Source: a virus. From it: a stretch of DNA of 64,000 bases. Made by a program: the position numbers and the translations under genes. This document shows positions 20,986-50,254 of the stretch, piece by piece (within the stretch, counting starts at the first letter, position 1; each line of letters starts with the position of its first letter). The notes below the pieces were generated by a model that had not been told where the DNA came from, ran no database searches, and saw only the letters and a list, made by a program, of their open reading frames with translations. Where the stretch lies: UHGV virus genome UHGV-0242533. The stretch is one strand, 5' to 3'.

Positions 20986-21090
20986 ATAGCTCTGCGCCGT
21001 TAGCTCAATTGTATAGAGCAGTTTCCTTCTAAGAAATTGGTTGGAGGTTAGAATCCTCCACGGTGCGCCAAATTGAATGAGAGGTGTGTT

Positions 21091-40323: not shown

Positions 40324-40532
40324 TGAAAAAGATGTGGGCTATTCGTGTTGTCTGGGAACAGAAACAACACTTAGGTAAAGATAATATCAAACTGTTTAAC
40401 ACTCGCAAAGAGGCTCGTGTCGCTAAAAAGAATATGAAAGCTCTAATAGGAACTGTTAAAAGTGCTGACATTCATCGCTGGTATGAAGACCCTAGCTCGG
40501 GTTCTTTTATGTCTAAAGTAATTTATTACTGA
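40323..40532 (+). CDS. Small basic protein, paralog 3 of 3
   Basis: 69 aa; tandem paralog. Confidence 0.5.
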   Translation: MKKMWAIRVVWEQKQHLGKDNIKLFNTRKEARVAKKNMKALIGTVKSADIHRWYEDPSSGSFMSKVIYY

Positions 40533-40558
40533 TTGGTAGTAGATATGGTAACTCTCAA

Positions 40559-40567
40559 ATGTATATA
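40559..40567 (+). promoter_or_regulatory. Near-match to TAATGTATA element (AAATGTATA)
   Basis: About 40 nt upstream of the 40605 start. Confidence 0.3.
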
Positions 40568-40604
40568 GAGTACAATAAGAATTTGTATTTTACAGGAGAG
40601 AGTT

Positions 40605-45665: not shown

Positions 45666-47510
45666 GTGAGCAACCCGGACGCTCTTCCATTTTTGACAGA
45701 GATGACTGTCGCTGATATAATCTCTAAGCAAGCAAAGCACGGAGTGAGTTTCAACCGAAGAAATGCTCGGTGGTATGTTCACCTCCTTAAAGAGATTATT
45801 GTTAATATTGACAGAGAGTTGATTCCTCTCTTACCTAAGATGAGATTAGATGGCTCTACTTACATGAAGCCGTTTAAGAAGTCTGGAGCTTTACAGAAGT
45901 GGCCTCAAGCCTATTGTGATAGGGTTGGGCTGAAGAGAGAAGATATTGGTGGAGCTTTCACCTGTGTCGAATACGTAGACTTTGACCCATCGAAAGATGC
46001 ACGAGTTAAAGAAGCTCTTATGGATGAGGGCTTTCTTCCTCCAGAGTTTAACGTATCTAAGAAGCCTTGGAATACTTTCGAAATTAAGAAAGATATGAGA
46101 AAGTATGGAACATACCAAGCATGGTATACTGCTTGGATGCGAGGTAATGCTAAGCAAAAACAGACAGCCGAGATGGTTGACGCTGATATTAAGAAGTTCT
46201 TAGAAAAGCATTTCAGGTTTAAGACTAAGAATTACATGAAGGCTTACGTATTTGGTTTGGGGTTGAACCCTAATCGCCGTAATCCTGTAACGTTTGATGA
46301 GATTAAGAAAGCACTAGCCACATCAAACAAGTGGCCTACAGCTCCTACAAACCTCGAGGAGACTCTTGAAGAAGGGTTAGGGGGTGAGCTAGGGAGTGTC
46401 GGAAGTTTGCTTAAGAAACGCGTTGTAGCGGCTCACAGGCTAGGTCTTATCAGTGGACTCATAGCAAAGGAGCGCGAAGATGGTAAACTTTCGGCAGAAG
46501 CTAACAGCTGCGCTACGCCGACTTTTCGATTCAAACATCGTATCGTGGTTAATATTCCCTCCCGTGGTCTGTTTGGTCACGAGTGTCGCAGTTTGTTTGA
46601 GTCTGACTATAACTCAGACAGTGATCACTCTCGTCCTTTCGTTATTACTAACGTTGTTCCTGATGGTTGTTATATACGAAAGGGTACTAACGTAATTTAC
46701 GAGAAAGGTAAGCCGGGGAAGAAAGACAAACCTGTAGGTGCTTACAAATATTACATACCCGCTGGTAAAGAAGTATTCTTAGGGTATGATGGTTCTGGAC
46801 TTGAACTTCGTATGCTCGCTCACTACCTCATCAAAGAGTGTAGAGATATGCTTGCTGAAGCAATCGAAGAGAACAATCCAGCTAAGAAAGCTCTGGCAGA
46901 ACGCGGTCTAGCTTCTGCTATTATGTATCGTGATATTCTCCTTGAAGGTGATATCCACTCCCACAACCAGAAACTTGCTGGTCTTCCTACTCGTGACAAT
47001 GCTAAGACATTTATCTATGCATTCAACTACGGTGCTGGTGATGCTAAGCTTGGTTCAATTGTAGGTGGTGGGGCTGACGAAGGTTCAGTGATGCGAGCAC
47101 GTTTCTTAGCAGAGAACCCATGTATTGCAATCCTCATTGATCGCATGACAGAGAAAGCTGCTCAAGGATACTTGATTGGTGTTGATGGTCGTAAGATTAC
47201 AATGAGACGAGATGCCACTGGTAAAGTTATGGTTCATAAAGCCCTTAATACACTCCTGCAATGTGCTGGTGCTGTTGTTATGAAATATGCTATGATGTTC
47301 CTTAACAAGTGGATTGAGAAGGATGGGGTTCGTTGTGCTAAGGTAATTGATATGCACGATGAAGGCCAGTTCTCAGTGAATCGTAATGATGTACAGAAAC
47401 TCAAAGAGCACACTGAGCTTTGTGTTAAGAAGGCTGGTGAGTACTTGAACATGGAATGTCCTCTGGCTTCTGATTGTCAGATTGGATTAAATTGGATGCA
47501 TACGCACTAA
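45666..47510 (+). CDS. Family A (T7-like) DNA polymerase, polymerase domain only (614 aa)
   Basis: Motif A GYDGSGLELRMLAHY, motif B-like RDNAKTFIYAFNYGAG, motif C VIDMHDEGQF; no exonuclease motifs in this ORF. Confidence 0.8.
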   Translation: MSNPDALPFLTEMTVADIISKQAKHGVSFNRRNARWYVHLLKEIIVNIDRELIPLLPKMRLDGSTYMKPFKKSGALQKWPQAYCDRVGLKREDIGGAFTCVEYVDFDPSKDARVKEALMDEGFLPPEFNVSKKPWNTFEIKKDMRKYGTYQAWYTAWMRGNAKQKQTAEMVDADIKKFLEKHFRFKTKNYMKAYVFGLGLNPNRRNPVTFDEIKKALATSNKWPTAPTNLEETLEEGLGGELGSVGSLLKKRVVAAHRLGLISGLIAKEREDGKLSAEANSCATPTFRFKHRIVVNIPSRGLFGHECRSLFESDYNSDSDHSRPFVITNVVPDGCYIRKGTNVIYEKGKPGKKDKPVGAYKYYIPAGKEVFLGYDGSGLELRMLAHYLIKECRDMLAEAIEENNPAKKALAERGLASAIMYRDILLEGDIHSHNQKLAGLPTRDNAKTFIYAFNYGAGDAKLGSIVGGGADEGSVMRARFLAENPCIAILIDRMTEKAAQGYLIGVDGRKITMRRDATGKVMVHKALNTLLQCAGAVVMKYAMMFLNKWIEKDGVRCAKVIDMHDEGQFSVNRNDVQKLKEHTELCVKKAGEYLNMECPLASDCQIGLNWMHTH

Positions 47511-48319: not shown

Positions 48320-48468
48320 TAAGGAAGAAGAATGATTTGGGTTCACACATATAAGATTGGAAAGAAAGAGATGACCGTTGTACATCACTCCGAAGAAAGC
48401 GCTAATGCTTCCAAGGTAATCCTTAAGGGAGAAGTTAAAGTATACGCTGAAGTAAAAGGAACAGAAAA

Positions 48469-48657
48469 ATGATCAATAAAATTAAAGATAATGAATACAT
48501 ACTTAATTCTTCTATTTTAGATAATGGAAATATTATTGATTTCATTACTCTTTCAGAGCTAAAAGAGTTAGTAGATTCTTTATACTCAGAGGAACAAAAT
48601 CGCTTGTTACAAGAGTCTCTCAGTGGGGACTATGTTTGTGATGGTTGTTTAATTTAA
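48469..48657 (+). CDS. Hypothetical protein (62 aa)
   Basis: ORF track. Confidence 0.4.
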   Translation: MINKIKDNEYILNSSILDNGNIIDFITLSELKELVDSLYSEEQNRLLQESLSGDYVCDGCLI

Positions 48658-48945
48658 CTTTCTTTATATTAGGTAATAAGTAATGAGTATTTATAAGAAG
48701 TTTCTTATCTTTGTTTCAGTCTGTTTAGTGTTAGATATAATAATTATTTATTCTTTTAAATAGAGAATCAAAGTCCCTAGGAGTCCCTACAACCTAAATC
48801 AAGGATTCCTTAATTCTCTATTTTTATCTCGCAGGTGGCTCCTGCCCTTCCGGTAGTCTCTCAATTTCTTACAAACTTATGAGAGGTTGTCGTCTGCGCC
48901 TTATCGTCGTCAGTCCCGTGCAATAACTTTATCAGCTATACAATA

Positions 48946-48954
48946 TATACATTA
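48946..48954 (-). promoter_or_regulatory. TAATGTATA element on minus strand within AT-rich intergenic region
   Basis: Plus strand reads tatacatta. Confidence 0.3.
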
Positions 48955-49017
48955 CTAGTGTGTTATATCTACTACCAAAGATACTTATATTATATAGTAC
49001 TCTTATCGGTATAAGCA

Positions 49018-49026
49018 TAATGTATA
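49018..49026 (+). promoter_or_regulatory. TAATGTATA promoter-like element
   Basis: Exact 9-mer about 60 nt upstream of the 49085 start, in an AT-rich region with inverted repeat at about 48760-48830. Confidence 0.4.
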
Positions 49027-49084
49027 CTATACATAACCGCTCAAAGAGAGCAACAATCTTTCAAATTAAATAAGGAAATTAGTA

Positions 49085-49831
49085 ATGAGCATGATTCCAA
49101 CTATCGCAACTTCTTCCCGTAAGTCCAACTACGATGTAATCCCTGATGGTGAGTACGAAGCACGTATTGTTCGTGTAGTAGGTTTGGGTGTTCACAATCG
49201 TGACCCTTGGATTGACCCGAAGACCAAAGCAGTAACTCCTAAGAATCCAGCTTTCCGTATGGATTTAGCTTTCGAGCTGATTGGTGTTGATGCTACTGGT
49301 AAAGATTCCGATGGTAAGGCATTAGAACCACGTCCGGCTTGCCAGTTCAAGAGCTATGATGTAAACCCACGAGCTAAGAACTCTGGTATTCTTGATCTTT
49401 GCAAGATGATTGACCCAAGTATTCAAGCACTGAAAGGTGATCTGTCTTGGTTCAAGGATGTTCTGTTAGGACAGCCTGTTAACATTCTGGTTAACTCTTA
49501 CACTAACAAAGCTGGTGAAGTTAAAAACTCCATCAAAACCATTTCTCCAATCCCAACCAAATATCGTGCAGCAGTTGGTGAAGCTCGTAGTCCTCTGGTA
49601 TTCTTCGAACCGTATGCTGAAACCGATGAGAACGTAGCATCCTATCAACTGATGTTCCCGTTCCAGCGCAACCTGCTTACCCAAGCTAATGACGCTAAGA
49701 ACATGCCTCTGGCTGGTCGTGAAATTACTCGTGCTTCTGAGACAGAACAGAAAGAAGCTACTCCTTCAATCCCTACGATTGATAAAGAGCCTGCTTCTAC
49801 TTATGAAGACGACAACGATTCGCCTTTTTGA
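49085..49831 (+). CDS. Putative single-stranded DNA-binding protein (acidic C-terminal tail)
   Basis: C-terminus ...STYEDDNDSPF resembles the SSB acidic tail (DDDIPF type); call rests on the tail motif only. Confidence 0.4.
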   Translation: MSMIPTIATSSRKSNYDVIPDGEYEARIVRVVGLGVHNRDPWIDPKTKAVTPKNPAFRMDLAFELIGVDATGKDSDGKALEPRPACQFKSYDVNPRAKNSGILDLCKMIDPSIQALKGDLSWFKDVLLGQPVNILVNSYTNKAGEVKNSIKTISPIPTKYRAAVGEARSPLVFFEPYAETDENVASYQLMFPFQRNLLTQANDAKNMPLAGREITRASETEQKEATPSIPTIDKEPASTYEDDNDSPF

Positions 49832-49840
49832 GGATAAATA

Positions 49841-50254
49841 ATGGAAGAAATCTGGAAAGATCACCCCCATCACGATTTCCTTTCCGTATCATCTTTTGGT
49901 AGAGTTAAGATTAAGCCTTTCACAGCCATAACAAATAATGGTGGAGTCAGGCTTTTCGTAGGAAAACCATACAGCGGATACAGAGAGAAAGATGGAAGGA
50001 TGGTATTTATAAACAGGAAAAGGAAGTTTAGGAAAAGGGTTCATATCTTAGTGTGTGAAACTTTTCATGGTGAGAAACCTTTCCCTAGAGCTGTTGTGAT
50101 GCATCTGGATGATAATCCGAGCAACAATAGAGCAGATAATCTTCAGTGGGGTTCCCAAAAAGATAACCTCAATACTGAATCTTTTATCGCCTACTGCAAA
50201 TCGAGAGTTGGTGATGATAACCCTCGTATCAAAGGTATGCAGAAATTCATATAA
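49841..50254 (+). CDS. HNH endonuclease (137 aa)
   Basis: HLDDNPSNNRADNLQW motif. Confidence 0.7.
   Translation: MEEIWKDHPHHDFLSVSSFGRVKIKPFTAITNNGGVRLFVGKPYSGYREKDGRMVFINRKRKFRKRVHILVCETFHGEKPFPRAVVMHLDDNPSNNRADNLQWGSQKDNLNTESFIAYCKSRVGDDNPRIKGMQKFI

Follow-up and report, generated by a model that had tools for sequence, protein, structure and literature searches.

We analysed a 64,000-nucleotide stretch of a virus genome (UHGV virus genome UHGV-0242533), referred to as the window, with focus on the 427-bp intergenic gap at 48658-49084. The gap is bordered on the left by the stop codon of the open reading frame (ORF) 48469..48657 and on the right by the ATG of ORF 49085..49831, and the surrounding ORFs are all on the + strand. 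The 3 kb around it match 99 phage records, all of them Escherichia/Shigella podophages of the phiEco32/SU10 group (Gordonclarkvirinae), with 90-95% identity (93-95% for SU10 and relatives). Judged from its sequence, the window is a phiEco32/SU10-like coliphage (Gordonclarkvirinae). An earlier reading of the letters alone (the sequence-only reading) had described an AT-rich intergenic region at this site. This description holds, with a GC content of 31.9% in the gap compared to 42.1% in the window, though the composition is uneven: 20% at 48658-48757, 35% at 48758-48823, 50% in the 102-bp core at 48824-48925 and 26% at 48926-49084. The gap would be a compact transcription hub in which two promoters for gp36, the sigma factor of the phage, stand back to back. 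It would combine a known promoter hub with a probable new phage non-coding RNA. The features are arranged as follows.

40533-40568, + strand: P68 homolog TTGGTAGTAGATATGGTAACTCTCAAATGTATATAG (P68 is a published middle promoter), with AAATGTATA at 40558
45666-47510: DNA polymerase gene, upstream of the gap
48658..48757, no strand: AT-rich spacer, GC 20%, LAMP-like lineage only and outside the conserved module
48758..48823, - strand: SL4, the inverted repeat of the sequence-only reading, proposed to form the 3' end of the leftward RNA or to protect it
48824..48830, - strand: A-rich linker joining SL3 and SL4, single-stranded (GAGAUAAAAAU in the RNA); read on the + strand, it is a T-tract that follows the hairpin
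48831..48845, - strand: SL3, a predicted GCAGG-N5-CCUGC hairpin of -7.9 kcal/mol
48851..48918, - strand: SL2 cassette, here the 68-nt 'long' allele, a predicted three-way junction
48923..48939, - strand: SL1, 5' stem-loop at the predicted +1, with the predicted fold AUAGCU-GAUAA-AGUUAU
48940..48978, - strand: Pas, predicted leftward gp36-dependent promoter, with TTGGTAGTAGATAT at 48978-48965, TAATGTATA at 48954-48946 and the predicted start A at 48939
48979..49017, no strand: AT-rich region between the divergent promoters, including the upstream part of P40
49018..49033, + strand: P40, published gp36-dependent middle promoter of gene 40, with TAATGTATA at 49018-49026 and the predicted start A at 49033
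49034..49084, + strand: 5' untranslated region (UTR) of gene 40, with a GCUC-AAAGA-GAGC hairpin at 49039-49051, the A/U-rich stretch UUUCAAAUUAAAUAAGGAAAU and the ribosome-binding site (RBS) AAGGA at 49072-49076
49085..49831, + strand: gene 40 homolog (phi32_40 homolog), 248 aa, a candidate single-stranded DNA-binding protein (SSB) according to annotated relatives

The element TAATGTATA, which had been noticed in both orientations, is indeed present on both strands of the gap, at 48946-48954 (-) and 49018-49026 (+). The window contains five exact copies compared to 0.74 expected, and none of 100 shuffles reached five. According to the papers that cite the original mapping, phiEco32 has six gp36-dependent middle/late promoters, P6, P13, P26, P40, P58 and P68, a set that was derived from macroarray and primer-extension work (Pavlova et al. 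2012, cited in PMC4281155, PMC8948821 and PMC12276001). These promoters share the element tAATGTAtA, and transcription starts 6-8 nt downstream of it (PMC8948821; PMC12276001). A gp36 promoter was defined here by this -10-like element, in which the centre of AATGTA lies at -11.5. Four of the five exact copies, as well as the P68 homolog, are co-oriented with a gene and match published promoters. The exception is the copy at 48954-48946.

The + strand copy is almost certainly P40 and hence already known. A middle promoter in Table S2 of SU10 is 'aagcgtaatgtatactatacataaccgctcaaagagagcaa between CDS37 and CDS38', and this sequence was found at 49013-49053 of the window with one mismatch. P40 and its equivalents are tabulated in Lavysh 2022 (Suppl. 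Table S2) as P35 in ECBP2, P37 in SU10 and P55 in 172-1, numbers that are exactly those of the gene-40 homologs in the records of these relatives. At the same position the distant relative 7-11 has P48, which was validated experimentally. As is typical for the location of gp36 promoters, P40 lies upstream of gene 40 and is co-oriented with it, and its gp36-dependent transcription start is published. Its GTAATGTATA is invariant in all relatives and its AATGTA in all compared gap versions. The -35 contacts in the window match partially, with A at -34 but A instead of G at -37, and the P40 of SDYTW1-type phages carries a P68-type GGTAG-N18-AATGTA -35 element. The suggestion of a 'middle-promoter hub' in the sequence-only reading was thus correct, and its + strand part is not new, because P40 is given in SU10 Table S2 and in Lavysh 2022. 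In its sequence, the - strand copy lacks no feature of a second gp36 promoter.

This - strand copy is part of Pas. The layout of Pas, TTGGTAGTAGATAT-N11-AATGTATATA, is that of the P68 homolog, with an identical 14-nt -35 block at identical spacing. Exact TGGTAG-N18-AATGTA sites occur twice in the 64 kb, in Pas and in the P68 homolog (0.36 expected with one mismatch allowed). In the cryo-electron microscopy (cryo-EM) structure of the open complex on P68 (2025), gp36 contacts -14A, -13A, -12T and -11G, and its C-terminal domain contacts -37G and -34A; mutation of the -35 contacts abolishes transcription from P68 and mutation of the -10 contacts significantly compromises it (PMC12276001). All six contacted bases are in register in Pas, and its -35 region reads T-39 T-38 G-37 G-36 T-35 A-34 G-33, identical to the P68 homolog. 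For comparison, 24 distinct gap versions from three named genera and from metagenomes were used. All 24 had TGGTAG and the 18-nt distance, and 23 had AATGTA, which is replaced by AATATA in a single contig from a metagenome. Many positions of the 18-nt spacer differ, as it drifts freely between lineages, and SDYTW1-type phages retain both boxes of Pas despite an adjacent 146-bp insertion. Two kept boxes at a fixed distance around a free spacer look like a working promoter. The AATATA variant (L029, metagenome contig ERZ1034915 NODE-75) represents a natural -11 G-to-A change.

Compared with the known gp36 promoters of phiEco32, one of which is the + strand element itself, Pas has the full tAATGTAtA box, the TTGGTAGTAGATAT block and spacing of P68 and -37G/-34A in register. 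As a predicted promoter it is unlike them in its orientation: the neighbouring genes are all on the + strand, so that Pas opposes all of them and is not co-oriented with any middle/late gene, and no ORF, in particular no conserved - strand ORF, lies downstream. Against its activity stands that it is not among the six published promoters, none of which is antisense, as these are reported in the papers citing the 2012 mapping. The site may have been examined in that work and found silent. In a rival explanation, which we regard as unlikely, the conserved block to the left of Pas acts on the + strand or as DNA. SL4 and the adjacent T5 would then form a terminator or insulator of the upstream middle operon and the rest a 3' UTR or a protein-binding site, while the Pas-like element would be silent or would help P40 by divergent-promoter supercoiling or RNA polymerase recruitment, and no discrete leftward RNA would matter. 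However, a terminator leaves the -35/-10 pair with its fixed spacing and free spacer unexplained. Pas is, on the basis of its sequence, probably a functional promoter. It appears to be an unannotated second copy of the P40-type promoter, unreported in the accessible literature, which excludes the primary 2012 paper.

In the proposed arrangement, P40 would start the rightward gene-40 mRNA at ~49033, and Pas, a near twin of the validated P68, would start leftward at ~48939, against every neighbouring gene. The product of Pas would be a non-coding RNA of ~182 nt here and ~156 nt in phages with the short cassette, composed of the 5' stem-loop SL1, the variable cassette SL2 with its two alleles, the small GC hairpin SL3 and the long terminal hairpin SL4, in this order. 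Leftward from 48939, conservation runs to the far base of the SL4 stem and stops there irrespective of the upstream gene, which is gp40.1 in the window and LAMP, gp41 in phiEco32 and a phosphoesterase gene in Paul, ECBP2 and Bas86. The 96-nt block from SL4 to SL3 is 98-100% identical between the phiEco32-like and the SU7/ECBP2-like genera; in the same comparison gene 40 is ~83% and the upstream 300 bp are ~75% identical. Each of the 99 related genomes carries the block a single time (at least 90% identity), and it is annotated in none of the 25 records among the matches listed for these genomes. ORFs conserved across the two cassette alleles were found on neither strand. The ultra-conservation could equally reflect a function of the DNA or of the + strand, which is a point against a leftward RNA. 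A + strand terminator, however, would leave the 98-100% identity over 96 nt, and a further conserved 27 nt, unexplained.

The two strands were then compared by folding. The minimum free energy was lower on the - strand than on the + strand in 21 of 21 distinct versions, by a mean of 7.3 kcal/mol, which argues against a + strand function. The same holds for the G.U pairs, of which five to six are invariant on the - strand. All of them, including one created by a substitution in XT73, become A.C mismatches on the + strand. Variable columns fall mainly outside the predicted stems (5 of 90 paired and 16 of 68 unpaired columns; Fisher p = 0.0016), and three compensatory changes were found in the RNA model. 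SL1 has a folding energy of -3.4 kcal/mol on the - strand and 0 on the + strand, so the + strand rival is without any fold at this position. One SL1 pair is C-G, A-U or U-A depending on the lineage, its neighbour is G-U or G-C, and 97.6% of cells were paired compared to 19-52% in slid controls. The stem of SL3 is invariant, with the sole change in the loop (G/T on the + strand). The linker between SL3 and SL4 is likewise invariant except for a one-base deletion in 101114BS3.

The SL2 cassette exists in two unrelated, interchangeable forms. The short allele has 42 nt, is predicted to form a single hairpin and is found in most relatives, namely in phiEco32, LAMP, 172-1, Paul, WFI101126, SU7 and others. 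The long allele is found in the window, in SDYTW1-type phages and in ECBP2. Both alleles occur in both genera (phiEco32-like and SU7/ECBP2-like) between identical flanks, and each is predicted to fold independently. The long allele contains one compensatory change from U-A to C-G between the window and ECBP2 (pair 33-50). No partner co-varying with the SL2 allele was found. The idea that the allele tracks the HNH endonuclease gene located after gene 40 in some relatives was rejected, as WFI101126 has the HNH gene together with the short cassette.

The inverted repeat reported at about 48760-48830 in the sequence-only reading turned out to be real. Its arms, at 48758-48771 and 48810-48823, are 14 nt long and 93% complementary, and the - strand stem extends to 16 pairs including two G.U. 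Of 200 dinucleotide shuffles of the region, 4 contained an arm of 14 nt or more with no more than one mismatch, so that the repeat is modestly unusual by length. The folding energy is clearly unusual, with z = -3.5 on either strand and none of 200 shuffles as good. SL4 has a predicted energy of -23.5 kcal/mol on the - strand and -18.2 kcal/mol on the + strand. Its outer 15-16 pairs are invariant in 20 sequences, and the two G.U pairs would be C.A on the + strand. The only substitution in the outer stem, an A to G change in XT73, gives a third G.U pair. SL4 also contains the direct repeat AGTCCCTA-GG-AGTCCCTA (48773-48790, + strand). Paul, ECBP2 and related phages have both copies in a shortened form (AGTCCTAGGAGTCCT), which in the RNA model trims one stem pair and the apical loop.

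Some features of SL4 favour a + strand function. On the + strand, SL4 consists of an 11-bp AT-rich outer stem and an inner stem, followed by a conserved T5 (48824-48828) exactly where the upstream genes end, and the z-score is equal on both strands. The - strand is without a U-tract after SL4; UUUAAAAG follows, so that no 3' end is defined, and this counts against a discrete leftward RNA. Because of this missing U-tract, Rho termination, or read-through and exonucleolytic trimming back to SL4, would be likelier than intrinsic termination. A terminator was defined as a stable, usually G+C-rich hairpin directly followed by a U-tract, and the consensus terminator scan did not call SL4. Moreover, the records that do annotate terminators mark none at SL4 (WFI101126; SU10, with four in its Table S2; SU7). 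Bidirectional terminators are hairpins common to convergent transcription units. SL4 resembles them as one inverted repeat where the + strand operon and the - strand transcript would both end, and differs from them in having a T-tract on the + strand only, an AT-rich stem, an internal region of 38-44 nt and no terminator call. On the + strand, SL4 with T5 may end the upstream middle operon too. The leftward RNA and the mRNA of the upstream operon, being convergent, would then share complementary hairpins.

This geometry would also suit a cis-antisense RNA, with a short transcript convergent with the operon and overlapping its 3' hairpin. The leftward RNA would pair with the 3' end of the upstream operon or with read-through transcripts, via the SL4 hairpins or the full 180-nt complement, followed by RNase III cleavage. 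Perfect complementarity to any read-through transcript is automatic. Nevertheless we consider this improbable. The left-hand gene varies by lineage (gp40.1, gp41 or the phosphoesterase gene), so there is no conserved cis-antisense target gene, and antisense action alone needs neither conserved stem-loops nor two alternative cassettes. A known system of this kind is the OOP RNA of phage lambda, a 77-nt antisense RNA from pO that is convergent with the pR transcript and directs RNase III cleavage of the cII mRNA. As predicted here, the leftward RNA is similar in being short and non-coding, in having a dedicated promoter in a replication/early region and running against the operon, and in its hairpin end and its overlap with the 3' end of a convergent mRNA. 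In contrast to OOP, which has a canonical intrinsic terminator and one conserved target, cII, it lacks a U-tract and any conserved target gene next to it. It would also be 2-2.4 times longer, with four stem-loops, a two-allele cassette and synthesis by the phage sigma factor. Since the gene to the left differs between phages, regulation of one particular gene in cis is unlikely. Our best guess is that the leftward RNA is self-contained and regulates in the middle (replication) phase, either by binding a protein or by acting in trans.

Several further results weigh against a discrete, functional leftward RNA. The covariation is thin and weak overall: of 45 pairs, 38 are the same throughout, and the sequences used for covariation are those that gave the predicted structures. 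The structural evidence is therefore suggestive and not proof. Rfam 15 gave no match at gathering score in the gap, and at permissive thresholds the stretch 48400-49300 yielded no hit with E below 0.85, all scores being far short of the gathering thresholds. Searches for RNA targets within the window yielded counts of complementary 10-mers and 11-mers at or below expectation, and among 5,426 E. coli genomes no target rose above chance. The sole E. coli match was 21 nt long (E = 7), in a prophage gene of eight genomes, and the short allele matched nothing. Finally, the module is absent from distant relatives that keep gene 40 and the promoter position (7-11, GAP52 and three IMG/VR contigs). The gene-40 homologs of these three contigs have 67-70% protein identity. 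The gaps are ~100-150 bp in 7-11 and the IMG/VR contigs, and GAP52 has none.

Two other checks concerned motifs and distribution. By eye, looking for CsrA/Hfq-type motifs, we found about four GGA triplets and no U-tail in the RNA. None of 185,579 species-representative genomes of bacteria and archaea carries the SL4-SL3 block; outside the 99 phage records it was found in only three IMG/VR and six metagenome contigs, all phiEco32-like.

With these points weighed, the balance tips slightly towards a discrete and stable leftward RNA being made. The sequence features, their conservation and the asymmetry between the strands were observed; from these we infer that Pas would fire, that its RNA would accumulate as a discrete species and that it would have a role of its own. 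The combination of Pas with an ultra-conserved, strand-asymmetric and loop-variable module most likely represents a new phage non-coding RNA.

The sequence-only reading had also proposed a replication origin, for which no specific support was found. In such an origin, primed by transcription, one or both gp36 promoters would supply the primer RNA for the leading strand, and the structured leftward RNA would be a pre-primer. The gap lies inside the replication gene cluster, with the DNA polymerase gene upstream and the candidate SSB gene downstream. Middle-phase promoters face in opposite directions from an AT-rich spacer, the leftward transcript is without a gene to express, and promoter-primed origins require little beyond a promoter. 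However, there are no iterons in the gap, only the two-copy 8-mer AGTCCCTA inside SL4. The AT-rich segment downstream of the leftward RNA (48658-48757) is lineage-specific, so a conserved unwinding element is missing, and the spacer between the promoters accepts an insertion of 146 bp. Cumulative GC skew has no inflection at the gap, which is a weak test, because in this genome the skew goes along with transcription. Nor does an R-loop primer call for a compact RNA with a stable fold, and the module is absent from distant relatives with the same replication genes. Known origins of this type are the primary origin of T7, with promoters 1.1A/1.1B and an AT-rich region, and oriF/oriG of T4, with a middle promoter and a DNA unwinding element. 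The gap is like them in having phage-specific middle-phase promoters next to AT-rich DNA in a replication cluster, and unlike them in that neither promoter is followed by a conserved unwinding element and the segment that would be transcribed is GC-richer and predicted to be structured. An origin at this site seems improbable, and SL4 makes better sense as the hairpin that ends the leftward RNA, possibly doubling as a terminator for the upstream operon, than as part of an origin.

The remaining parts of the gap were also examined. The AT-rich spacer at 48658-48757 was found only in the window, in LAMP (L004) and in L009. In the other relatives the upstream stop codon is followed by the hairpin within ~15-35 bp. 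In the LAMP-like lineage the spacer holds a 26-aa hydrophobic ORF, MSIYKKFLIFVSVCLVLDIIIIYSFK (48683-48763, + strand), whose stop codon lies inside the 5' arm of the hairpin. This ORF is preceded by a 27-nt, 81% copy of the RBS/start region of gene 40 (48664-48690 and 49066-49092), and in LAMP it shows one synonymous change and one I-to-V change. The 146-bp insertion of the SDYTW1-type lineage lies between the two promoters, both of which are kept. It is located at ~960-1150 of SDYTW1-F1-2-2_3 (L007), is also present in L009 and L029-L033, and encodes a 47-aa basic ORF, MKFNHKYAATEKARAYVTARQSRVYKRQSPTNNSKETFVWTKPTTLR. Scans for sigma-70 promoters and terminators showed no enrichment compared with shuffles, and a tRNA/tmRNA search found none in the gap region. 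The only Rfam/ARAGORN match in the window is a tRNA-Arg (anticodon TCT) at 20994-21070 on the + strand, a known gene of this group of phages. A small terminator-like hairpin, GACCCTAGCTCGGGTTCTTTTAT, precedes the P68 homolog at ~40489-40511.

Downstream of the gap, the sequence-only reading had placed a putative SSB gene. The gene is there as the phi32_40 homolog; its SSB label comes from a few GenBank records only, and Pfam and PDB sequence searches with the protein gave no match. A single-sequence AlphaFold model was unusable (pLDDT 36.6). The C-terminus of the protein is acidic (...YEDDNDSPF), and we take this tail to resemble the C-terminal tails of SSBs. The 5' UTR of gene 40 is 91-98% identical between genera compared to ~83% for the coding sequence. 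It could be a translational operator if gp40 is an autoregulating SSB; the gp32 protein of T4 is an SSB with autoregulation. Directly after gene 40 follows an HNH endonuclease gene (49841-50254, + strand; Pfam HNH_3 and a weak NUMOD4 match). Only some relatives have this gene, which makes a free-standing homing endonuclease probable. According to annotated relatives, the sigma factor gene phi32_36 lies ~1.7 kb downstream of the gap.

phiEco32 is the reference system for phage-encoded sigma factors, with cryo-EM structures for gp36/gp79 and a promoter set quoted as six. If Pas is silent, the promoter-like elements of the sequence-only reading reduce to the known P40 and a terminator hairpin. 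We see an even chance that the Gordonclarkvirinae coliphages including phiEco32 encode an unrecognised structured RNA of ~156-182 nt, made from its own gp36 promoter in the middle phase, with a core that is more conserved than the replication genes and with two interchangeable alleles of its central module across genera. If so, such a pattern would fit a determinant of specificity, for instance a surface that binds a partner or acts as a decoy, with a part in controlling replication or in opposing a host factor, and the two-allele SL2 cassette would provide a natural experiment for finding the partner of the RNA. Adding a seventh promoter, antisense and of the P68 type, would alter the transcription map for the entire subfamily, and so would an ultra-conserved RNA that is unannotated in all 25 records among the matches listed for the 99 genomes.

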